A stretch of DNA of 64,000 nt from a virus. The stretch is from positions 1 to 64,000 of IMG/VR virus record IMGVR_UViG_3300036806_000217; one strand, written 5' to 3'. Shown here one piece after another: positions 24,139 through 55,475 of this stretch. Both the position numbers and the translations under genes were made by a program. Position 1 is the first letter of the stretch; every line of letters starts with the position of its first letter. A model generated the notes under the pieces. That model had not been told where the DNA came from. It did not search any database and saw only the letters and a list, made by a program, of their open reading frames with translations.

Positions 24139-25893
24139 GTGGACAACGTCCGCCACATCGACGACCCCCGCACCGGGGACGACGGCACCGGGCGGCCCCC
24201 CAGCCTCGACGACGACGCCGAGCAGTACCTCATGGCCGCCATCCTCGACAGCCCCCGCGGCTACCAGGAAGCCGCCGAGGTCGTGGACCGCGTCGACATC
24301 GAGAAGCCCGGCTACCGGCTGATCTGGGACGTCACCGGCCAGCTCGTCCAGGCCGGGCAGCCGTCCCACTTCATCGCCGTGCGCGCCGAGATCGAACGCC
24401 TCGGCCGGATGCGGGACATCGGGCACGGCAAGCTCATCGACGACCTGTCCGCGGTCAACATGCCCGCCGGGTCGGCCGGCTACTTCGCCGAGAAGATCGC
24501 CAAGAACGGGCGGGCCCACCGCGCCCGCACCGTAGCCCTGCGGCTGCGGAATGCCGCCGACGACCCGAACGCGGACGTCGACGTCTTCGACAAGATCCTC
24601 ACCGAGTACTGGACCTACGAGGCCCAGCGCGCGATGGGCACCAGCGGCCCAGCCAGCCGCGTCGACGCCCTCATCGCCGAGATGCTCGACACCAAGGCCC
24701 TGGACGACATGCCCGCCCTGGAGCCGCTCCTCGGGGACCTGCTGCACCTGGACACCCTCGCCCGCGTCATCGGCCCCTCCGGCCACATGAAGAGCTTCGC
24801 GGTCATCGACTTCGCCGGCCACATCGGCACCGGCCGCCGCTGGCACGGCCGCTACGTGCGCCAAGGCCTGGTGGTGTACCTCGTCGCCGAAGGCTCCGGC
24901 GGCATCCGCAAGCGCGTCCGCGCCTGGGAGCGGCACCACGGCGTCGCCATGGAGCACGTCCTGTTCCTGCCCCGCCCCGTCCAGGCCATGGACTCCGAGT
25001 GGCTCACCCTCATTGAGGCCTGCCGGCGCCTGGGCCCGGCGCTGGTCATCGTCGACACCCAGGCCCGCGTCTCGGTCGGGGTGGAGGAGAACTCGGCGAA
25101 GGAACTCGGCCTGGTCATCGACCGCATGGAGCAGCTGCGCGCCGCAACCCGCGCCTGCATCCTGCTGATCCACCACACCGGCCACGTCGGCGACCACGGC
25201 CGCGGCTCCACCTCCGCCAAGGGCGCCCTGCAGTCCGAGCTCCACGTCTCCAAGAAGGGCGACCGGGCCGCGAACACCATCGTCACGATCAAGACCGGCA
25301 AGCAGAAGGACGACGAGCAGGACGGCGACATCCAGTTCGGGCTGAAGGTCGTGAACCTGCCCGGCGAGGCGAAGCCCGACGGTCGGCCCGTCACCTCCGT
25401 GGTCCTGGTACCGCTCGGGGAGGCGTCACAGGCCTCCGGATTCGAGGCCCCAGAGGGCACCGTCGACTGGCTCGTGCAGAAACTCGACGCCGCGAAGGTC
25501 CCCGCGGACTGGGGCAATCGGCTCGTCAAAAAGTGGTTCATCGATCAAGGAGTCCCGGCCGGCAGCACGAAGGTCGAGGAGGTCGTGAGGCTGCGGAAGT
25601 CGCGTGTTTCAGACGTTCCCCCGCATGTTCCCTACCAGCCAGTAACAGAAATGTTCCCCCAAGCCGGGGAACACGAAGACGTTTCCGCAGGTCAGACGTT
25701 CCCCGGGAACGTCGGGGGAACACCGGGGACCCCCGTTCCCCCGCAGACGTTCCCCCGCCCTCCTTCTAGGGAGGGGGAACGCAAGGACGGCGACCCGATA
25801 TGCGCCTCCTGCGACAAGCCCATGGACCCCGCCTGGAAAGCCCGCGGATACGACACCCACGTCATCTGCGACACCACCGGAGAACCCGCATGA
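24139..25893 (+). CDS. Replicative helicase: DnaB-N-like domain + RepA/AAA_25 ATPase + C-terminal Zn motif
   Basis: PPSLDDDAEQYLMAAIL N-domain; Walker A variant GPSGHMKS; YLVAEG; Walker B LVIVDT; IHHTG...RGSTS. Confidence 0.85.
   Translation: MDNVRHIDDPRTGDDGTGRPPSLDDDAEQYLMAAILDSPRGYQEAAEVVDRVDIEKPGYRLIWDVTGQLVQAGQPSHFIAVRAEIERLGRMRDIGHGKLIDDLSAVNMPAGSAGYFAEKIAKNGRAHRARTVALRLRNAADDPNADVDVFDKILTEYWTYEAQRAMGTSGPASRVDALIAEMLDTKALDDMPALEPLLGDLLHLDTLARVIGPSGHMKSFAVIDFAGHIGTGRRWHGRYVRQGLVVYLVAEGSGGIRKRVRAWERHHGVAMEHVLFLPRPVQAMDSEWLTLIEACRRLGPALVIVDTQARVSVGVEENSAKELGLVIDRMEQLRAATRACILLIHHTGHVGDHGRGSTSAKGALQSELHVSKKGDRAANTIVTIKTGKQKDDEQDGDIQFGLKVVNLPGEAKPDGRPVTSVVLVPLGEASQASGFEAPEGTVDWLVQKLDAAKVPADWGNRLVKKWFIDQGVPAGSTKVEEVVRLRKSRVSDVPPHVPYQPVTEMFPQAGEHEDVSAGQTFPGNVGGTPGTPVPPQTFPRPPSREGERKDGDPICASCDKPMDPAWKARGYDTHVICDTTGEPA
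25615..25780. repeat. Iteron-like GTTCCC(C)/GGGAAC cluster, candidate replication origin
   Basis: About 10 copies in both orientations within 165 bp of the helicase 3' region. Confidence 0.7.
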
Positions 25894-45761: not shown

Positions 45762-46175
45762 ATGAGCGACACCACCGCAGCGGACCGCGCATACATCCAG
45801 CACGCCACCAGCGCAGCCCACGCCGCCGGACGCGCCGCAGCTCTACGCGGCATCACCCTCCCCCGCGACGTAGCCCAGCAGATCGCCGACGCCGTCCTCG
45901 GCCACGCCGACAACAAGTACAGCGTCCGCGTCAGCCTCGACCGGCGCGCCTGGCAGCACCCCGACGCCCATGAGCACGCGCTTCAGCAGCTGCGCCGCCA
46001 ACTCCTGGACGAGATCACCAGCCGAGAGCTACTGCCCGTCGCACTGCCCGCCCAGACGCTCACCTACGTGTCGTGGCGGTACGGATCCAACGAGCCCCTC
46101 GCCGCTTCCACTGCCGAGCCGGCCGACTGGGACTCGGTCGAGATCACCCTCACCGTGCCCGTGAGGACGCCATGA
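45762..46175 (+). CDS. Hypothetical protein
   Basis: 137-aa ORF with GC3 bias. Confidence 0.65.
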   Translation: MSDTTAADRAYIQHATSAAHAAGRAAALRGITLPRDVAQQIADAVLGHADNKYSVRVSLDRRAWQHPDAHEHALQQLRRQLLDEITSRELLPVALPAQTLTYVSWRYGSNEPLAASTAEPADWDSVEITLTVPVRTP

Positions 46176-46477
46176 CCCTGTACGACCGTGTCGCCGCCAC
46201 CCCCGACGGTGCCCGCGCCCTCGCCCAGGCCCGACTGCGGCACGAGACCCTGCACCTCCTCTGGGACGCCCAGGCCGCATCCGGGATGAGCGTCGAGCAG
46301 CTGGCGAAGGCGCTGGGCGTGCGGCGTAGGACCGTGCGCCGGGCCTTCGACGGCGACGGGAACCTGCCCGTCGGCACGCTTGCCCGCTACCTGCACGCCA
46401 TGGGGTACGAGGTCGAGCTGCGGGTGGTCGCGGCCGGGGAACCACGGCGGAAGATGATCGACGGGAAGGCATCGTGA
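46172..46477 (+). CDS. XRE HTH protein, HigA-antitoxin-like
   Basis: SGMSVEQLAKALGV....V...FDGDGNL.VGTLARYLHAMGYEV. Confidence 0.75.
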   Translation: MTLYDRVAATPDGARALAQARLRHETLHLLWDAQAASGMSVEQLAKALGVRRRTVRRAFDGDGNLPVGTLARYLHAMGYEVELRVVAAGEPRRKMIDGKAS

Positions 46478-46896
46478 CCGAGCAGTTCGACCCCCACATC
46501 CTGGCCTCCGTGGAGCAGTGGCGTGCCGAGCGCGCAGCAGACACCGCCTGGACCCGCCACCTCCCGCCCGAGGCCCGCGCCGAGATGGACACCGAGCTCG
46601 CCGCGCTGGACGGCGATGCGCGAGCCGTGGCCCTGATCGCCTGGCGCAACACCGCCGCCGTGTACGCCGACCCCGAGCTGCACGCCGCGCTCAGCCGGGA
46701 CGCGGACCGGCAGGCCACGCCCGACCGCGACGGCTACACGTTCGGCGTGTACCTGCCGCCCGGGGTCAGCGAGGAAGTCCGCGACCGGCTCGGGGACCGG
46801 ATCATGGACCTCGTTGCCGACGCCGTCCCCGACGCTGAGGTTGTCGGGCAGGCCGGGGATCCGCTCGGGGCTGTGGACGGGATCGCCCGGCCGTAG
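46474..46896 (+). CDS. Hypothetical protein with antitoxin-like N-terminal region
   Basis: AWTRHLP...E...IAWRNTAAVYADPELHAALSR. Confidence 0.6.
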   Translation: MTEQFDPHILASVEQWRAERAADTAWTRHLPPEARAEMDTELAALDGDARAVALIAWRNTAAVYADPELHAALSRDADRQATPDRDGYTFGVYLPPGVSEEVRDRLGDRIMDLVADAVPDAEVVGQAGDPLGAVDGIARP

Positions 46897-47029
46897 CCGC
46901 TACGCTCGGGGCGCGGTCGCTGACACCCGCAGTTCGGTAGTCCGGACGAGAACGACCCTGGCCGCTGCAAACGAGCCAGGACAACAGGGCGCCCCCGGCC
47001 GATGGTCGGGGGCGCGGCTGCGTGGTGGG

Positions 47030-47863
47030 CTACTCGGACGGCGGGGTGATGACGAACAGAGTGTGCGGCAGGCCCCGGCCGGACGCACCCGGACGCTTGC
47101 CGACCTCCGCAATCAGGCCCTGCTCAAGCAGTGCCCGGACGTTGAGCGCGATTCCAGGCGCGGAGAGCGGGCTGATCTCCGCAAGGTCCGCCCGTGAGAA
47201 GAACTCCGAGCCGAAGCGCTCCCGTGCGACGGCCAGCAGCTTGTGTCCACGCGTATCCGGCGCGTCCCGCCTGGCCAGGTCCGACCGCTGCCCCTGGCGG
47301 ACGTCCCGGCCCGCAAAGAAGGGTTCGATGAGCGGCCACGGGAAGAGCCACATGTTCGCGATGAAGCGCCACTGCTCGCGAGGAACGGGCCAATCCGGGT
47401 CGGACTGCGCGATCTGCATCACGCGGGCCCGGCTCAGGCCAACACGACGGCTGATCTCCGCCACGTTGACCCACTGCCCCTCGTAGGCGTGCCAGTCGAC
47501 GGTCGAGATCCCGACGGCGCCGCTGGCCGAGACGAGCATCGGCGACGGCGTTCGGGAGAGATTGTGCAGCGGTCCTTCCGTCGTGATCGCTTCGACCTCG
47601 GCCACCGCCGCATCCTCGCGGGCGTCGAACCACTCAACGCTGCGCTCGAACCTGAGCGGCCACCACGTCGCCGCCGTGGTTGCGTGCTGGCTCCAGCGCA
47701 GCTTGAGATTGTTCGTGATCCCGACGTACAGGAGCTGGCCAAAGACGTCGTAGAACCGGTACAGCGCGGTCGTTCCGGGCTTGTGCTCCGGGGCGGGTAA
47801 GCCGGTGGACTCCCGCTCGGTCTCGCTAGTCCTCGGGGCTTCCTGGGGCGTGCCCTGTTTCAT
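47030..47863 (-). CDS. GIY-YIG nuclease fused to AlpA-like HTH and winged helix
   Basis: ALYRFYD..GQLLYVGIT.N...RW.QH; VAEISRRVGLSRARV; C-terminal wHTH. Confidence 0.8.
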   Translation of the reverse strand: MKQGTPQEAPRTSETERESTGLPAPEHKPGTTALYRFYDVFGQLLYVGITNNLKLRWSQHATTAATWWPLRFERSVEWFDAREDAAVAEVEAITTEGPLHNLSRTPSPMLVSASGAVGISTVDWHAYEGQWVNVAEISRRVGLSRARVMQIAQSDPDWPVPREQWRFIANMWLFPWPLIEPFFAGRDVRQGQRSDLARRDAPDTRGHKLLAVARERFGSEFFSRADLAEISPLSAPGIALNVRALLEQGLIAEVGKRPGASGRGLPHTLFVITPPSE

Positions 47864-48122
47864 CTGCGGTCTCTTCCTTACGCTCTTCCAGATCGGTCCG
47901 TCGCCCCTGCTTGAGCCCGGCCAAGCGCTGTTCCCAGTACGCCTCCAGGGAGGCGAGGGGGTAGCGAGGCACGGTGCTGCCCGGTGCCATGACTGCTTTC
48001 GGGAACGCCTGATCGGTGGCGGCCAGCCGATGGATGAGCTGTCGGCTGCGCTGTACGTGTGCGGCGAACTCGGTGACGGTCATCGGATCGGGTGGCCCCT
48101 CCTGGCCCGGGGTGGGCGACAT
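47826..48122 (-). CDS. AlpA/excisionase-like HTH protein
   Basis: MTVTEFAAHVQRSRQLIHRLAATDQAFP...QGRRTDL. Confidence 0.7.
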   Translation of the reverse strand: MSPTPGQEGPPDPMTVTEFAAHVQRSRQLIHRLAATDQAFPKAVMAPGSTVPRYPLASLEAYWEQRLAGLKQGRRTDLEERKEETADETGHAPGSPED

Positions 48123-48196
48123 ACGGACATCCTCTCAAGAAGGTGTTGCTGATGTAAAGGAAGTCGCGTAGCTTGGGACTCGCGACAACACGCAAA

Positions 48197-48305
48197 GGCC
48201 CCGACCGCTCGTGACAGATCGGCCGGGGCTGACAACGGGTCGTCCGGGCGGTGACACGCCCGGACGACCCTCAACCCCGACTCGGAGGTGACACTCCGGG
48301 TCGGG
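48197..48305 (+). promoter_or_regulatory. Leader with three hairpins sharing the loop GTGACA
   Basis: Stems 48197-48230, 48237-48270, 48276-48305; loops at 48211, 48251, 48288. Confidence 0.7.
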
Positions 48306-48336
48306 CATCCGCCACCTGATCTCACCAGGAGCGAAC

Positions 48337-48579
48337 ATGCTTGATCGTAGCCAGGAAGTTCCTGGTTCCGGCAGTCCCGCACCGGCCTCCACCCTCGGCG
48401 GCCCGGACACCATCACCGCCGCAGCCGCACGCACCCGACACCTGCGCACCCCCGGCGACCGGAACCAGACCGGGTACGACTTCGACGGCGACGGGCAGCT
48501 CGTGCTCCGCGACGGCTGGGACTCGCACCACGCTGACCGCGCCTTCGGGCAGGGACCGGACGGCGGTAGCGCGGCATGA
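48337..48579 (+). CDS. Hypothetical protein
   Basis: AGGAG RBS; ATGA overlap. Confidence 0.6.
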   Translation: MLDRSQEVPGSGSPAPASTLGGPDTITAAAARTRHLRTPGDRNQTGYDFDGDGQLVLRDGWDSHHADRAFGQGPDGGSAA

Positions 48580-48989
48580 GCGCCGCCGACCCGGACGCCA
48601 ACCCCCGCCTCAAAGCGATCATCGCCCGCCACACCAACGACATCGCATTCCTCGTCCCCGGATGCCCGACCGACGGCAACACCAGCATCGACGGCGTCAC
48701 CCTCGGCGAACTCCTCGCCGACGCCCGCGACCACCTGGAGGCCATCGACGCCGACAACGCCAGCATCCTCAACGCCGCCCTCATCTACCTCGCCGACGCC
48801 CTCGACGCCGACAACGACACCGCCCAAGACGTGCTCCTCAGCTACGTCGACCACTACCTCACCGGCAGCGAAGATTCGGACGGCTTCATGGACGGCGTCG
48901 AAGACATGGCCCGCAAACTCGCCGCCGAGTACGGCCTCAGCTACCCCGACGGCGCCGTGCTCCACGACCAGGCGGCAGGTGCACGATGA
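48576..48989 (+). CDS. Acidic hypothetical protein
   Basis: ATGA overlaps. Confidence 0.7.
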   Translation: MSAADPDANPRLKAIIARHTNDIAFLVPGCPTDGNTSIDGVTLGELLADARDHLEAIDADNASILNAALIYLADALDADNDTAQDVLLSYVDHYLTGSEDSDGFMDGVEDMARKLAAEYGLSYPDGAVLHDQAAGAR

Positions 48990-49309
48990 CCCGCCCCACG
49001 ATCCACGGCGACGGACCCGCCCGCCCCGCCACCGACGCCGAGATCAAAGCCGTCCTCGACCAATACACCGCCGCGGACGGCGCCGTCGACTTCCACGCGC
49101 TCTGGCTCGACGCGCAAGCCAAGGACCGGCAGGACGCGATCGACTACGCCGTCCTCCGCGTCAACCAACTCCTCCAGGCCCTCGCCGACGACACCGGCGA
49201 CTACGCCCAGCGCAACGCCACCGTCGACGACTTCCGCACCGCCGTCCGCCACCTCCGCACGCTCAACAGCGGACACCTGCCCCAGCTCACCGCACGCCAG
49301 GAGGCCTGA
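48986..49309 (+). CDS. Hypothetical protein
   Basis: ATGA overlap. Confidence 0.7.
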   Translation: MTRPTIHGDGPARPATDAEIKAVLDQYTAADGAVDFHALWLDAQAKDRQDAIDYAVLRVNQLLQALADDTGDYAQRNATVDDFRTAVRHLRTLNSGHLPQLTARQEA

Positions 49310-49310
49310 C

Positions 49311-49514
49311 ATGGCCACCGCCGCACCCGACGTCGCCACCGAACTCGACCTCGTCCGTGCCGACGGCATCCGCCACTACTGGCGGGCCGTGGCACTCCTC
49401 GCCGAAGCCGAAGGGCTCCGCGACAGCGACTACAAACACGACCTCATGGAGCGCTGCCAGCGCCACACCGAACTCGCCAAAACCGCAGCACTGCTCACCG
49501 GCAGCAGCAGCTGA
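49311..49514 (+). CDS. Hypothetical protein
   Basis: GGAGG RBS. Confidence 0.65.
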   Translation: MATAAPDVATELDLVRADGIRHYWRAVALLAEAEGLRDSDYKHDLMERCQRHTELAKTAALLTGSSS

Positions 49515-49552
49515 CCCACCCCCCGGGCAACGACACCACGGAGGACCGACCC

Positions 49553-49777
49553 ATGCCATGGAACCCGTTCGCACCCAAGGCGCCCGCCGTCGACACCCGC
49601 TACCACGACGCCGAGCAGCGCCGCCAGGAAGACGCCGCCCACAAACGCCAGGTCGCCGCCGACGCAGCCGCCCGCCAGGAGGCATCCGACGCCTACTACG
49701 CCGAGATCATGCCCCAGCGCCGGGCCCGCCGCGCCGCCTGCACCATGTCCAACCACGACCGCTGCCTCAGCCACTGA
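49553..49777 (+). CDS. Hypothetical protein
   Basis: GGAGG RBS. Confidence 0.6.
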   Translation: MPWNPFAPKAPAVDTRYHDAEQRRQEDAAHKRQVAADAAARQEASDAYYAEIMPQRRARRAACTMSNHDRCLSH

Positions 49778-49909
49778 GCAGCCCCCGAGCGCGGCCGACC
49801 CGACCCCCCGCGCGGGTCGGCCGCACAGCCGGCGCCCGCCCCGCACCCCCGGGCGGGACGGGCGCCACCACCGACCGAGCACGACGACCTGAATGGAAGC
49901 CGACCAGCC

Positions 49910-50806
49910 GTGGCCAAGACCGACGATCACCCGATCCACCCCTACGAGCGCGAGCTCAACATCGCGCTCGCGGTGATGTGCTGGGCCTCGGTAGCGATGG
50001 CCATCGGCTTCGAGGCAACTACGGCACTCCCCCTCGTCGCCAGTGAGCGAGTCCCGGCCGACGTGAGGATCAGCGATCTGATCGCCACGGGTGCCGTGGT
50101 GGCCATGGCCGCCTACGCCCTCCTGCTGGAGTGGGTCAACCGTCACCACCCGTCCCGCCGCCGGGCCTGGCGCCGGTCAGGCTGGTCCTGCCAGGGAGTG
50201 CTACTGGCGATGTGTACCGCCGGCGCCATAGAGAAGCACCACTACCTGGCGCTCCCTTGGATTGCCACGACGGCCGTCATGGGCCTGGGCAGTTGGAACC
50301 TCTGGATGCGTGGCCAACTACTGCCAGCCGAGGACCAGAAGGTCATCAACGAGCTGATCGCAGACAAGGAGCGCCGCGAAAGAGACGCAATCCGCGCCGC
50401 CGAACACCGCCGCCGCGAGACCCGCTTTCAGAAAGTCGCCGCCTCCTACCAGCCGGCCGGAGCCGCACCCCTGAGCGTTCCTGCCCTGAAGCCCGAAGTC
50501 GATCCGAAGCCCTGGCTCATCCCGGATGGAAAGCACAGCCCGGTCGTGTACTTCATCCAGAACGGCGACCGCGTCAAGATCGGCACGACGACGAACCTGC
50601 GCTCCCGGATCAGCGCCCTTTCGTTGCGGCCCACCGACATCGTGCTGCTCGTCAACGGCGGACGACCGTTCGAGCAGGCACTCCACAAGCGCTTCGCCAG
50701 CGTGCGAGTCGGCAACACCGAGTGGTTCGCCAATTCCGGGCCGGTCGCCGAGTACATCGTCATCGAGGCTGCGCGGGCCCGAGCTATCGCCAAGTCGAAG
50801 GGATGA
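49910..50806 (+). CDS. Membrane protein with C-terminal GIY-YIG (T5orf172-like) nuclease
   Basis: About 4 TMs, a coiled coil, then VVYFI..GDRVKIGTT.NL..R....E.ALHKRFA..RV..TEWF. Confidence 0.85.
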   Translation: MAKTDDHPIHPYERELNIALAVMCWASVAMAIGFEATTALPLVASERVPADVRISDLIATGAVVAMAAYALLLEWVNRHHPSRRRAWRRSGWSCQGVLLAMCTAGAIEKHHYLALPWIATTAVMGLGSWNLWMRGQLLPAEDQKVINELIADKERRERDAIRAAEHRRRETRFQKVAASYQPAGAAPLSVPALKPEVDPKPWLIPDGKHSPVVYFIQNGDRVKIGTTTNLRSRISALSLRPTDIVLLVNGGRPFEQALHKRFASVRVGNTEWFANSGPVAEYIVIEAARARAIAKSKG

Positions 50807-51720
50807 CCATGGACGAGATCGACGACGCCCCCGTCGCCTCGCCGGAGACCATCCGGCGCCTCATGCTGTTCGCGGTCATCCTGTCCATCGCCTCGACCGC
50901 CACAGCGTTCTGGCTCTCCTACGAGCACCTCCACGACGTCGCCAGCGGCCATGGCCTCAGCGCAGCCCGCGCCTGGGCATGGCCCGGCACGGTCGACACC
51001 TTCATCATCATCGGCGAGGTGATGATCCTCGTCGCCAACCTTCTCCGCAGGACCGACGGGTGGGCCATCTGCGTAACCGTCATCGGCTCCGTGGGCTCCG
51101 TCGCCCTGAACGTCGCTGGCGTCGGAGCGCACGCGGCGATCATGACGTATATCGTCGCGGCGGTGCCGCCCTGCGGCGCGCTCATGTCCTTCGCGATTCT
51201 CATGCGGCAGATCAAGAAGGTCCTCACTCCACGACGGGACGAGGCGGAGCCGTCGGCGGATGCAACGACGGATCAGCCCATCGCCGACGACGGAGCAGCC
51301 GACGGAAGCCGGCCACCCGTCGTCGGGAAGACCGTCGACCCGACGCCTCCCGACGCGACGGAAGCGGCTCGATCCGTCGTCGAGTCGACGCCTTCCGTCG
51401 ACCTTCCCGACGCTTCCCCCGTCGCTGCATCCGTCGTCGAGAGGCCAGCCCAGCCGCCGACGACTCGTCGGCCGAAGGCGACCCGATCCGCCACCGGGAA
51501 GCGTCCGCCCCGTCGGTCTCTCGACGAGTGGGTGGAGATCGCCGGGCCGATCTTCCACGCCGAGTTCCAGCGCCTCCGCAGGAAGCCGACCGCCAATGAG
51601 TTTGCTCAGGCGATCGACCGGGCCGGCTTCGGCCTGCCCTCGGACACGGTGGCGAAGACGATCCGTTCGGAGATTCTCGACCGCGCGGACGTCCCGGCTC
51701 TGAGTGAGGAGGGGCAATGA
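50803..51720 (+). CDS. DUF2637 (Spd-like) membrane protein with C-terminal DNA-binding helix region
   Basis: AFWLSYEHLHDVA..HG....AWAWP..VD..I..GE; 4 TMs; low-complexity linker. Confidence 0.82.
   Translation: MTMDEIDDAPVASPETIRRLMLFAVILSIASTATAFWLSYEHLHDVASGHGLSAARAWAWPGTVDTFIIIGEVMILVANLLRRTDGWAICVTVIGSVGSVALNVAGVGAHAAIMTYIVAAVPPCGALMSFAILMRQIKKVLTPRRDEAEPSADATTDQPIADDGAADGSRPPVVGKTVDPTPPDATEAARSVVESTPSVDLPDASPVAASVVERPAQPPTTRRPKATRSATGKRPPRRSLDEWVEIAGPIFHAEFQRLRRKPTANEFAQAIDRAGFGLPSDTVAKTIRSEILDRADVPALSEEGQ
51232..51436. repeat. Intragenic CGACGG(A)/(T)CCGTCG repeat cluster
   Basis: About 12 copies in both orientations in the DUF2637 linker. Confidence 0.6.
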
Positions 51721-53325: not shown

Positions 53326-53354
53326 TCCGCCGTCGCGCGGAGAAAGGCACGATC

Positions 53355-55475
53355 GTGGATCTCGACTGGGACGCCAAGCACGGAGCCGTCACCGGCTCCC
53401 TCAACACAGCCGGTGCCGCACTGGCCTTGGCGTCGATCGAACACGTCGCCCACCTGCCGCTGTGGTCCGCCACCGCGGTAGCCGGCGCCGGACTGGTGGG
53501 CACCCACCTGGCCGGGGTCCGCAAGAAGGTCACCGGTGCGACCCTCGCGCTGCGCGCGGCGTCCTGGATGGCCGTTGGCGGCTGGTGCTCCTGGGCCGCG
53601 GTCGAAGGTCCGTGGACGCGTGACGTCCTCGTGGCCCTCGCCGCCGGCGCCGTCGGACTGGGCGGCGCCATGGCCGGTGCGCACCACGTCGAGGAGAAGA
53701 AGGCGGAGGAGCAGGCCAAGGCCGAGGCCGCAGCGAACCTCGCCAGTCTGGACGGCAAGCGGCGGAAGGTCGCCGAGGAGTGGCAGGAGCGCATCGCGAA
53801 GGTGTGCACCGGTTCCACCGTCCAGATCACCGGCGTGGAGGAGTGGCCGTCCGGCGGCGGCTTCACCCTGGATGGCAACTGCCTGCACGGCACCAAGTGG
53901 CGCGACCTCAAGACCCACGAGGACGCGCTGGCCGCCGAGGCCCAGCTCCCGGAGGGCTGCGGCGTCGAGGTCAAGAAGGGCGCTCACCGCGGCGCTGTCC
54001 TCATGGACGTGGCCACCGTCAACGCCCTCATCGACGACTGCCCCTATCCGTCGGACTACTCGCCGCTGTCCATCAACGACCCGGTGTCTCAGGGCGTGTT
54101 CCGCGACGGCTCCAAGGCCGAGGTCCTCCTCCGCGAACTTACCGGCCTGATCGCGGCCCGCCGCGGCGCCGGCAAGACCAACCTGATGAACGTGGGCATC
54201 GCCAACGGCGTGCGGATGGTCGACAACCTGGACTGGGTCATCGACCTCAACGGCGGCGGCCTGGCCCTGCCGTGGCTGCACGCCTGGGAGGCGGCGGGCC
54301 GTCCGGGTCGGCCGCCGATCGACTGGGTTGCCGACACCCCGGCGAAGGCCCTGGCCATGGCGCAGGCCGCACTGCGGATCGCGAAGGCCCGCAAGCCCGG
54401 CTACAAGAAGCGGGAGATCGCGGCGAACGACGACAAGCTGCCCGTCGGCTCGGACGTCCCGGCGGTGACGATCAGGTGCGACGAGATCGCGGAGATCTTC
54501 TCGCCGCGCGCCCGCAAGAACGAGGTACTGAAGAGGACCGGGGACATCCTCATCCAGATCGTCGAGATCGCCCGCGCTGTCGCCATCAACGAGATCCTGG
54601 CGGCGCTGCGCGTCACCCAGGACGTGCTCGCCGAGCCGCAGGTCCTCAAGCAGTCCGGCCTGAAGATCGGCATGCAGTCCGACGAGGCCGAACTCGCCTA
54701 CCTCTGCGGCTGGGGCGACAAGGTCTCCCCGGAGGACATCCCCTATCCGGGCTGCGGCGTCATGAAGATCGGCGAGGAGCCCGCACGCCCGTTCAAGGCG
54801 TACCGGCTCAAGCCCGCACAGATCGCCGACATCGTCGTCGCTACCAGCGGCCTGCGCCCCGAGCTCGACGAACTGTCCCGCCGCGCAGCCGGCCCGGCCT
54901 ACGAAACCCGGTGGGACGGCATGGACCACATATTCGGCATCGGCGACCTGCCCGAACGCGCAGGCGATGAGGACGGCGACGAAGACGGGGACGGCGAGGG
55001 CACCGAGGACTTCGCTGCGCCCCGCGGCTCCGGCGTCACCGCGAACTGGGGCACCGAGCCGCCGCGCGTCGACACCCAGGCCGCCCTCGACCAGGCCGAC
55101 GCCGCCCGCGACGCCATCCGCAAGGCAGCCGACGAGGCAACCAGCCGCGACGACGACCTCGACGCACAGTTCCAGGCCGTCCTCGAAAGCGGCGGCGCCC
55201 TGTGGAAGCCGCCAGCCGACGTGCCGACCCGCACGGGCCAGCCCATGCCCACCCCGGGCATCAGTGACGACGCCCGCTGGGCCGCCGTGTTCTCCATCGT
55301 CGCGAAGGCCGGTCCGGCCGGGATCAGCCCCACGGCGATCCGCGAGTTCTTCACCCAGATCAGCCCCGGCCTCGAGGCACCGCACCGGGCGACGATCACG
55401 ACATGGGTCCAGGCCGAGCCGCAGATTCACCAGCCCGTCAAGGGCAAGTACGCCCTGCGCCCCGAGGAGAAGTGA
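53355..55475 (+). CDS. traB: TraB-like FtsK/SpoIIIE-family DNA translocase
   Basis: N-terminal TMs, Walker A ARRGAGKT, IDLNGG, Walker B IRCDE, acidic linker, C-terminal winged-helix-like segment. Confidence 0.8.
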   Translation: MDLDWDAKHGAVTGSLNTAGAALALASIEHVAHLPLWSATAVAGAGLVGTHLAGVRKKVTGATLALRAASWMAVGGWCSWAAVEGPWTRDVLVALAAGAVGLGGAMAGAHHVEEKKAEEQAKAEAAANLASLDGKRRKVAEEWQERIAKVCTGSTVQITGVEEWPSGGGFTLDGNCLHGTKWRDLKTHEDALAAEAQLPEGCGVEVKKGAHRGAVLMDVATVNALIDDCPYPSDYSPLSINDPVSQGVFRDGSKAEVLLRELTGLIAARRGAGKTNLMNVGIANGVRMVDNLDWVIDLNGGGLALPWLHAWEAAGRPGRPPIDWVADTPAKALAMAQAALRIAKARKPGYKKREIAANDDKLPVGSDVPAVTIRCDEIAEIFSPRARKNEVLKRTGDILIQIVEIARAVAINEILAALRVTQDVLAEPQVLKQSGLKIGMQSDEAELAYLCGWGDKVSPEDIPYPGCGVMKIGEEPARPFKAYRLKPAQIADIVVATSGLRPELDELSRRAAGPAYETRWDGMDHIFGIGDLPERAGDEDGDEDGDGEGTEDFAAPRGSGVTANWGTEPPRVDTQAALDQADAARDAIRKAADEATSRDDDLDAQFQAVLESGGALWKPPADVPTRTGQPMPTPGISDDARWAAVFSIVAKAGPAGISPTAIREFFTQISPGLEAPHRATITTWVQAEPQIHQPVKGKYALRPEEK

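Follow-up and report, generated by a model that had tools for sequence, protein, structure and literature searches.

The window examined here, a stretch of 64,000 nucleotides (positions 1 to 64,000 of IMG/VR virus record IMGVR_UViG_3300036806_000217), comes from an 87,340-bp virus genome with direct terminal repeats. Positions 48123-48336 form a divergent intergenic region (about 214-218 bp) between a minus-strand HTH gene and a plus-strand operon (Table 1). ORF1, the first gene of the operon, encodes a protein for which no Pfam or PHROG match was found. The operon also encodes small proteins, a GIY-YIG membrane protein and a Spd-like DUF2637 membrane protein, the last with relatives in Streptomyces phages (tblastn). 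The TraB-like translocase encoded further along has a GAGKT Walker A motif and a C-terminal winged-helix-like tail, and its C-terminal domain comprises about residues 640-715 of P0011. It is 49.5% identical (over 98%) to a protein of a Streptomyces plasmid (L405); weaker matches carry the annotation DNA translocase FtsK, and the Pfam FtsK_SpoIIIE model does not reach it. On the other side of the intergenic region, a 277-aa GIY-YIG protein (47030-47863) holds a copy of the HTH type of its 98-aa neighbour, with which it clusters. Elsewhere in the window, direct repeats occur at 25610-25750 and 536-767 (CAGACGTTCC three times, one copy extending to CAGACGTTCCCCCGC, and GGCCGTTCTGC three times).

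Table 1. Genes, hairpins and candidate control elements around the array (window coordinates).
Feature	Position	Strand	Details	Basis
HTH protein gene	47826-48122	-	98 aa, excisionase/AlpA-like	phrog_66 excisionase and transcriptional regulator, E 1.7e-5
Putative sense promoter	48146-48174	+	TTGCTG (48146-48151), 17-nt spacer, TAGCTT (48169-48174)	by eye
Inverted repeat over the -10	48163-48186		GTCGCG-N12-CGCGAC; candidate operator for the HTH protein	sequence and fold
T-rich, terminator-like tail after hp1'	48187-48196	-	A-rich on the plus strand; 4 T in 8	
Hairpin hp1	48197/8-48229/30		arms 48197/8-48210 and 48217-48229/30; 13 nt, 85% complementary; loop GTGACA 48211-48216	
Hairpin hp2	48237-48270		arms 48237-48250 and 48257-48270; 14 nt, 100% complementary; loop GTGACA 48251-48256	
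Hairpin hp3	48276-48305		arms 48276-48287 and 48294-48305; 12 nt, 92% complementary, one G·U; loop GTGACA 48288-48293	
Ribosome-site helix	48315-48331	+	CCUG (48315-48318) / CAGG (48326-48329), 4 bp; overlaps ribosome site AGGAG	
ORF1 (P0002), first gene of the operon	48337-48579	+	80 aa	codon-position GC
-10-like hexamer of putative antisense promoter	48344-48349	-	TACGAT, at ORF1 codons 3-5	
DUF2637 (Spd-like) membrane protein gene	50803-51720	+	in the operon	PF10935, E 3.8e-14
TraB-like FtsK-type translocase gene	53328-55475	+	start not fixed; frame open from 52788	codon-position GC

Three consecutive hairpins lie within the intergenic region. Inspection of the sequence, an inverted-repeat finder and RNA folds of both strands bore out what the initial annotation had described here, namely three hairpins with identical GTGACA loops, a perfect 14-bp middle stem, loops 40 and 37 nt apart and an array that ends 31 nt before the ATG at 48337. 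Its hp1 is also a hairpin, but the quality of that stem had been slightly overstated, as it contains A·C and C·U mismatches besides an outer G·U. The inner stems differ (GCG, GAG and CTC) while all three loops stay identical. Across the whole 87,340-bp genome, GTGACA occurs five times on the plus strand, three of them in the array, and its complement TGTCAC three times, against about 12 per strand estimated from base composition; no other hairpin with a GTGACA loop was found in that genome. The fold of the intergenic region is more stable than that of shuffled sequences on either strand (z = −5.1 for the plus and −5.3 for the minus strand), and none of 200 shuffles was equally stable. A search of positions 46000-50000 with the Rfam 15 covariance models (both strands, E up to 10) returned no family match, in keeping with the earlier statement that no named family fits. 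Two sub-threshold matches overlapped the array, sX13 with 20.7 bits (gathering threshold 50) and ftsZ-DE with 19.1 bits (threshold 72.2); MIR4374, also weak, matched off the array at 48798-48906.

BLASTN of positions 47000-50000 against phages and plasmids gave no match, a search of viral contigs with P0001 gave no relatives, and P0003 had none by profile in genome and metagenome contigs or by tblastn in phages. A pattern on the conserved 3' flank hit only the L001/L002 contigs and four chance matches (L003, L004, L005 and L007). Two loop-only patterns hit at least 120 and at least 119 stretches, and after a hairpin filter the members among the matches listed were L034 and L001/L006; L017 and L122 also passed the filter and were rejected, being 15-nt tandem repeats. 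The first homologue, phage contig L001, has the same three hairpins with many compensatory changes in the stems, and all its loops read GTTGCA; its flanking gene stretches are 77-89% identical to those of the window, and its leader/HTH stretch 68%. The productive pattern asked for GTGGTNNCACAC twice, as the tips of adjacent hairpins whose middle bases were left open, and matched 27 viral and 117 genome stretches. Five of the viral stretches are false positives (L253, L255, L264, L271 and L272), and 30 of the genome stretches score above 60 bits with R1, a covariance model that we built on 25 of the pattern-found regions.

Building a covariance model from homologous leaders was a check that the initial annotation had proposed. 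R1 recovered 48 regions, 46 of them distinct, at 63-145 bits, compared with 22-36 bits on the reverse strand, and their stems covary. The members come from IMG/VR phage and provirus contigs and, by record title, from Streptomyces genomes, one Streptantibioticus genome and two actinomycete MAGs; the Streptomyces plasmid L405 also carries the region (66 bits), with CTGACA loops. Carriers that the genome records name as strains include S. albireticuli NRRL B-1670 (L273), S. natalensis ATCC 27448 (L315), S. mirabilis JCM 4551 (L310) and S. sulphureus DSM 40104 (L353), and L405 is a plasmid of Streptomyces sp. NBC_01177. Among Streptomyces species genomes, at least 3 of 151 have an R1 match at E ≤ 1e-6, as judged from 20 scored candidates in each genome out of more than 10,000. 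The seed alignments A3/A4 omit L344 and L372 for their extra hairpin, L256 and L261 for having two hairpins, L351 for a different hp1, L301 because it is cut, and duplicates. Alignment A5 holds four members with two hairpins and two with an inserted fourth, and L258 (cut at the contig end, 81.7 bits) falls outside it. In L344 and L372 the extra hairpin has an unrelated loop and sits between hp3 and the ribosome-site helix.

The members share a layout that starts with a small HTH gene in divergent orientation and a TTGNNN-17/18-TANNNT promoter, whose palindrome is specific to the element, and continues with CACAAAG, hp1-hp2-hp3, CCUG-N7-CAGGAGG and a start codon. The AAAG that precedes hp1 is nearly invariant. 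Homologues of the HTH protein (cluster 0) adjoin the leader in 32 of the 48 loci, and no other gene cluster does so in more than 16. Downstream of the leaders are Spd-like membrane proteins (DUF2637 in one of ten proteins scanned), a NERD protein and a DUF6197 protein. The array is the window's copy of a conserved control region that heads a transfer/spread operon in Streptomyces conjugative elements, proviruses and phage-plasmid hybrids. A literature search found no published description of this element.

The earlier suggestion that the array belongs to a leader fits its setting, since it lies in a transcribed-looking leader with a conserved promoter upstream and a ribosome site and ATG downstream. 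The window's own promoter was not called by a strict scan for consensus E. coli-type promoters; its two hexamers recur at the aligned place in L001 and in the other family loci inspected. The palindrome over this promoter is probably the operator of the divergent HTH protein, acting separately from the hairpin array. Each family promoter has a long palindrome of its own (e.g. in L350 and L279) that overlaps the -35 and -10 or lies between them. These palindromes vary among elements independently of loop class and are likewise likely operators of the divergent HTH protein. In one member, L309, the array is internal to an operon, where it follows a stop codon immediately and lacks a promoter, as fits an RNA-level element.

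Weaker R1 matches and similar repeats were seen outside the 48 regions. The Streptomyces albireticuli locus of one full member holds a second, weaker R1 match (L273, 711-865, minus strand, 36 bits). Two Pyrinomonadaceae MAGs, from another phylum, have orthologous loci (L298, 2392-2525; L332, 581-691) with two hairpins each and R1 scores of about 39 bits. The tips read GTG-GTCACA-CAC in L298 and GTG-GTCGCA-CAC in L332, so that the loops again switch in concert, and a T-run follows the hairpins on the same strand. An Acidobacteriota MAG (L336, 3524-3992) has tandem repeats of about 46 nt, with one gap of 57, each containing GTG-GTGACA-CAC.

That the stems vary while pairing and loop are kept, as noted earlier for the window, is borne out by covariation across the 46 distinct homologues. 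In the model-based alignment, which is fitted to the structure, 32 of 43 pairs changed on both sides (221 cells), and 90.4% of cells are paired. In a MAFFT alignment, which is independent of the structure, 26 of the 43 pairs did so. None of 500 shuffles matched the observed covariation on either alignment, and slid controls gave 36-63 double-change cells on the model-based alignment (20-63 over both). Compensatory changes occur in 11 of 14 pairs of hp2 and 10 of 12 pairs of hp3. The ribosome-site helix is paired in 100% of cells, with one single compensatory change; its other three pairs are invariant and so yield little covariation evidence. Selection maintains the three hairpins as base-paired structures.

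Among the 46 distinct members the loop consensus is G-U-N-R-C-A, with positions 1, 2, 5 and 6 nearly invariant and position 4 always a purine, though the search pattern left both middle positions free. The central dinucleotide (GA, UG, CG, AG or CA) defines five classes: GTTGCA in 16 members, GTGACA in 14, GTCGCA in 11, GTAGCA in 4 and GTCACA in 1. All three loops are identical in 39 of the 48 members, and three others have a one-base variant in hp1. L262 combines GTGACA in hp1 with GTAGCA in hp2 and hp3 and looks like an intermediate in a switch of loop class; the remaining non-identical members have two hairpins or a divergent hp1. Mutual information among the loop columns is 1.75-1.86 bits, compared with at most 0.8 for every other column. 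Close relatives can share their stems and differ in their loops (L262 versus L270 and L260; L265 versus L250 and L326), which indicates that the loops changed specifically. Recognition loops of cis-antisense systems typically contain a U-turn motif, YUNR. The UNR core is present in the great majority of sense loops of the family; the preceding base is G rather than a pyrimidine, except in plasmid L405, whose loops read CUGACA.

The encoded neighbours do not follow the loop classes. Identical recognition helices of the HTH protein occur with different classes, RPITRQGVRYIADHDP with GTAGCA in L262 and GTTGCA in L267, and RPITRQGVRHIADTDP with GTGACA in L270 and GTTGCA in L276. Moreover, each of three HTH subtypes is found with several classes, and we rejected this protein as the reader of the loops. 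ORF1 was rejected as well: family ORF1 proteins are largely unrelated in sequence, and the 44 readable ones are diverse, bear no relation to loop class and have no shared arginine-rich N-terminus. One ORF1 type of 48-58 aa, with a motif like GRTITxTVTExGGRGR, occurs in seven loci (L279, L351, L259, L367, L334, L320, where it is 300 aa as called, and L288) that span three loop classes. A partner in cis within the leader was rejected on the column statistics above, as no column exceeds 0.8 bits with loop class. The loops were also considered as -35 boxes of tandem promoters and rejected by eye, with no -10-like hexamer 17 nt downstream of any of them. That no adjacent protein covaries with the loops is expected if their partner is a complementary transcript.

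Which strand, then, is read? The initial annotation had taken a G·U pair as a sign of RNA structure, which would favour the plus strand, and the family does not support that argument. Among the non-Watson-Crick cells of the 46 distinct leaders, 119 are A·C or C·A and 36 are G·U or U·G, and in hp2 alone the ratio is 40 to 2. A·C exceeds G·U in 34 leaders, with the reverse in 4 and a tie in 8; the window itself has no A·C excess, with about one of each. An A·C on the sense strand is a G·U on the opposite strand, so the minus strand pairs better. Consistent with this, the minimum free energy is lower on the minus strand in 33 of 46 leaders, by 3.0 kcal/mol on average, and R1 was built on the plus strand, so that any bias from fitting works against this result. 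Part of the A·C excess could come from mutation pressure that differs between the strands, with C changing to T on the minus strand.

Two further features are found on the minus strand only. The tail after hp1' contains at least four T in eight positions in 41 of 46 leaders, and at least five in 21 of 46, whereas plus-strand tails with at least four T in eight are absent after hp1 (0/46), hp2 (0/46) and hp3 (0/45). No sense-strand intrinsic terminator (a GC-rich hairpin followed by a U-tract) was found in the family leaders. The short T-tail of the window was not called by a terminator scan. At ORF1 codons 2-5, a minus-strand TANNNT occurs in 36 of 45 loci, compared with 2 of 45 for either of two control windows; in the three corresponding windows the plus strand has 2, 0 and 1 of 45. 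The hexamer accounts for the DNA string GATCGTAC that unrelated ORF1 genes have in common. The -35 of this putative antisense promoter is weak or unclear beside the conserved -10-like hexamer. Family-wide, the evidence favours the minus strand.

These observations lead us to read the array most likely, with a probability of roughly 45%, as a sense/antisense RNA switch, in which a predicted countertranscript of about 150 nt kisses the operon leader through the hairpin loops. We infer both promoters (sense and antisense), the termination, the contact between the RNAs and the outcome. A search for RNA runs that contain the sequence found none, and contigs of X1 and X2 matched as short spurious pieces that leave 48111-48312 uncovered. 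The sense promoter upstream of hp1, judged from its conserved promoter-like hexamers, would place the hairpins in the 5' leader of the operon mRNA. The -10-like element in the first ORF1 codons and the T-rich tail after hp1' would delimit the countertranscript (about 48337 to 48188 in the window), which would be complementary to each of the three hairpins and to the ribosome site. Binding would begin by loop-loop kissing and extend over the ribosome site, and this pairing would shut off ORF1 and the downstream operon. The central N-R dinucleotide of the loops would serve as the specificity code. Its constancy over the three loops would allow every pairing of a sense with an antisense loop, and its divergence among related elements would keep co-resident relatives from regulating each other. 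The model alone does not require the three loops to be identical, because an antisense RNA encoded in cis matches its target with any loop sequence.

The sense/antisense switch and the alternatives that follow are not mutually exclusive. One of these is a DNA-level site of the TraB/clt kind, in which the loop class would co-evolve with the C-terminal DNA-binding domain of TraB. According to PMC3583192, the clt of pWTY27 comprises 16 bp of traA and the adjacent 159 bp, with four copies of TGACACC and inverted repeats, and was footprinted by its TraB homologue; the same text gives nine copies of CCGCACA[C/G][C/G] for pJV1 and three of G(C/A)AAC for pIJ101. The loop classes that these repeats resemble are GTGACAC, GTCGCACAC and GTTGC, the last as its reverse complement. 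Some TraB comparisons agree with such a reader. The TraB proteins of the window and phage L001 are only about 19% identical and the loops differ, while four flanking stretches are 77-89% identical. The L405 TraB, 49.5% identical to the window's, has a similar C-terminal helix and comes with CTGACA loops; and the TraB of G009 (GTAGCA) is 49-51% identical to those of G005/G008 (GTTGCA) in the ATPase part, with no match in the last 120 residues. Others disagree: G013 (GTAGCA) and G018 (GTTGCA) have similar TraB C-termini, and GTTGCA is found with two unrelated C-terminal types. Overall, among nine TraB proteins, three comparisons of loop class with C-terminus agree and two disagree. Set against L401 (G001:C1:52080-56972), the transfer ATPase at 53328-55475 of the window seems to have been replaced as a module.

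Several further results speak against a TraB site. A TraB-like gene was detected in only 8 of 21 leader-bearing virus records; of the 10 with a completeness of 90% or more, 3 have one and 7 have none. A reader of double-stranded DNA explains neither the 32 covarying stem pairs nor the strand asymmetry. In pIJ101, whose clt is genetically defined, the best R1 match has 16 bits (filters off) and lies at the kilB leader, not at clt; this weak match (L410, 2439-2561, minus strand) falls on a leader that also holds GC-rich hairpins. In the window's genome, GGTGACAC is not enriched elsewhere. Apart from these results, the pSVH1-type TRS GACCCGGA gave no signal, occurring once in hp3 (48295, reverse) and 11 times scattered over the genome without a cluster. 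The SpdA sps palindrome, in the form given in PMC4170104, is absent from that genome. We regard a TraB site as unlikely; recognition of the motif as single-stranded DNA or as a cruciform is a possible variant of it that we do not favour.

Another alternative keeps the sense strand and has the three loops bound by an RNA-binding protein that the element encodes, in N/boxB-like antitermination, in translational repression or as a sponge, along the lines that the initial annotation had put forward. The array does have a conserved promoter before it and a ribosome site after it, and a single reader acting in trans would be expected to go with identical loops whose class is specific to the element. 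In lambda, the N gene is placed directly after nutL; ORF1 of the window, low-complexity by eye, is positioned relative to the array as N is to nutL. Against such a protein stands the lack of a candidate, as neither neighbour, the HTH protein or ORF1, varies with loop class, ORF1 has no conserved arginine-rich motif, and beyond the HTH gene (32/48) no gene cluster is found in more than 16 loci. The wobble-pair and energy asymmetry favour the other strand, and without a plus-strand U-tract after any hairpin (0/46, 0/46 and 0/45) the leader offers no evident target for antitermination. A protein-bound leader is doubtful in our judgement. Finally, hairpins acting by structure alone, as 5' stabilisers, RNase III sites or pause hairpins with loop identity maintained by short-patch gene conversion, are quite improbable: in many members the hairpins agree over their inner 14 nt (GGTG-GTNRCA-CACC), which could support conversion, as could the GTAGCA shared by hp2 and hp3 of L262 beside a GTGACA retained in hp1, but the nearly invariant positions 1, 2, 5 and 6 and the constant purine at position 4 of the loop (46 distinct members) point to sequence-specific reading, and the window's loops are identical despite inner stems that differ (GCG, GAG, CTC).

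Control of conjugation in Streptomyces is known mainly through GntR-type repressors of the Kor/TraR kind. If the sense/antisense switch is real, it would add a new level of control, exerted by RNA where the tra/spd operon begins. About 50 natural variants, with a two-base code repeated in three identical loops, make questions of cross-regulation, incompatibility and immunity among co-resident conjugative elements and temperate phages directly testable, and R1 gives annotators a covariance model for a structured element that has so far gone unannotated. As the reported clt repeats resemble the loops of the array, published mapping of clt next to tra genes may need re-reading. A broader proposal, which we offer as a long shot, is that a so far undescribed class of RNA pair controls both double-stranded DNA (TraB/Spd-type) conjugation and spread in Streptomyces elements and phage-plasmid hybrids. 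Its three identical U-turn hexaloops would form a programmable two-base N-R code that defines cross-immunity groups of co-resident elements, and the motif might double as a DNA site read by TraB, tying the expression of transfer genes to DNA recognition.

The closest parallels are systems in which a countertranscript controls a leader through kissing loops, such as RNA I/RNA II of ColE1, CopA/CopT of R1, FinP/traJ of F-like plasmids and Anti-Q/prgQ of pCF10. In these systems a short and highly structured antisense RNA is made opposite the leader and has several stem-loops (three in RNA I), of which the loops make first contact. Specificity lies in the loop bases, which vary from one related element to the next, and FinP and the pCF10 system target a transfer operon. 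The array resembles RNA I, CopA, FinP and Anti-Q in that its loop bases differ between related elements (five classes), which by analogy may give them a role in specificity. It differs from them in that the three loops of an element match one another exactly and switch together, in its Streptomyces host and TraB/Spd-type transfer module, and in being predicted from sequence alone. FinP has a further partner in FinO, and no FinO-like partner is known for the array. A literature search found no published kissing-loop control in Streptomyces TraB/Spd-type elements.

Two other systems share parts of this design. The nut site of lambda consists of boxA and a boxB hairpin read by N. As there, the loop of the array rather than its stem carries identity, and the leader precedes a small, fast-evolving first gene; unlike nut, the array comprises three hairpins with hexaloops and goes with no conserved arginine-rich peptide, and the evidence points to the antisense strand. 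The clt loci of the Streptomyces plasmids pWTY27, pJV1, pIJ101 and pSVH1, as they appear in PMC3583192 and PMC4170104, likewise have an element-specific motif that is repeated and set in inverted repeats. According to these papers, clt motifs are short, repeated 3-9 times and located next to a tra gene, and their sequences resemble the loop classes of the array. Unlike clt, the array forms covarying hairpins with the motif in the loop and heads an operon 4-7 kb from traB; moreover, most members examined lack a detectable traB, and pIJ101 does not match R1. Cis-antisense kissing-loop control of the key operon of a mobile element is already well known; what is new is the set of three identical loops, their concerted switching between classes and their occurrence in TraB/Spd-type elements of Streptomyces and in phage hybrids.
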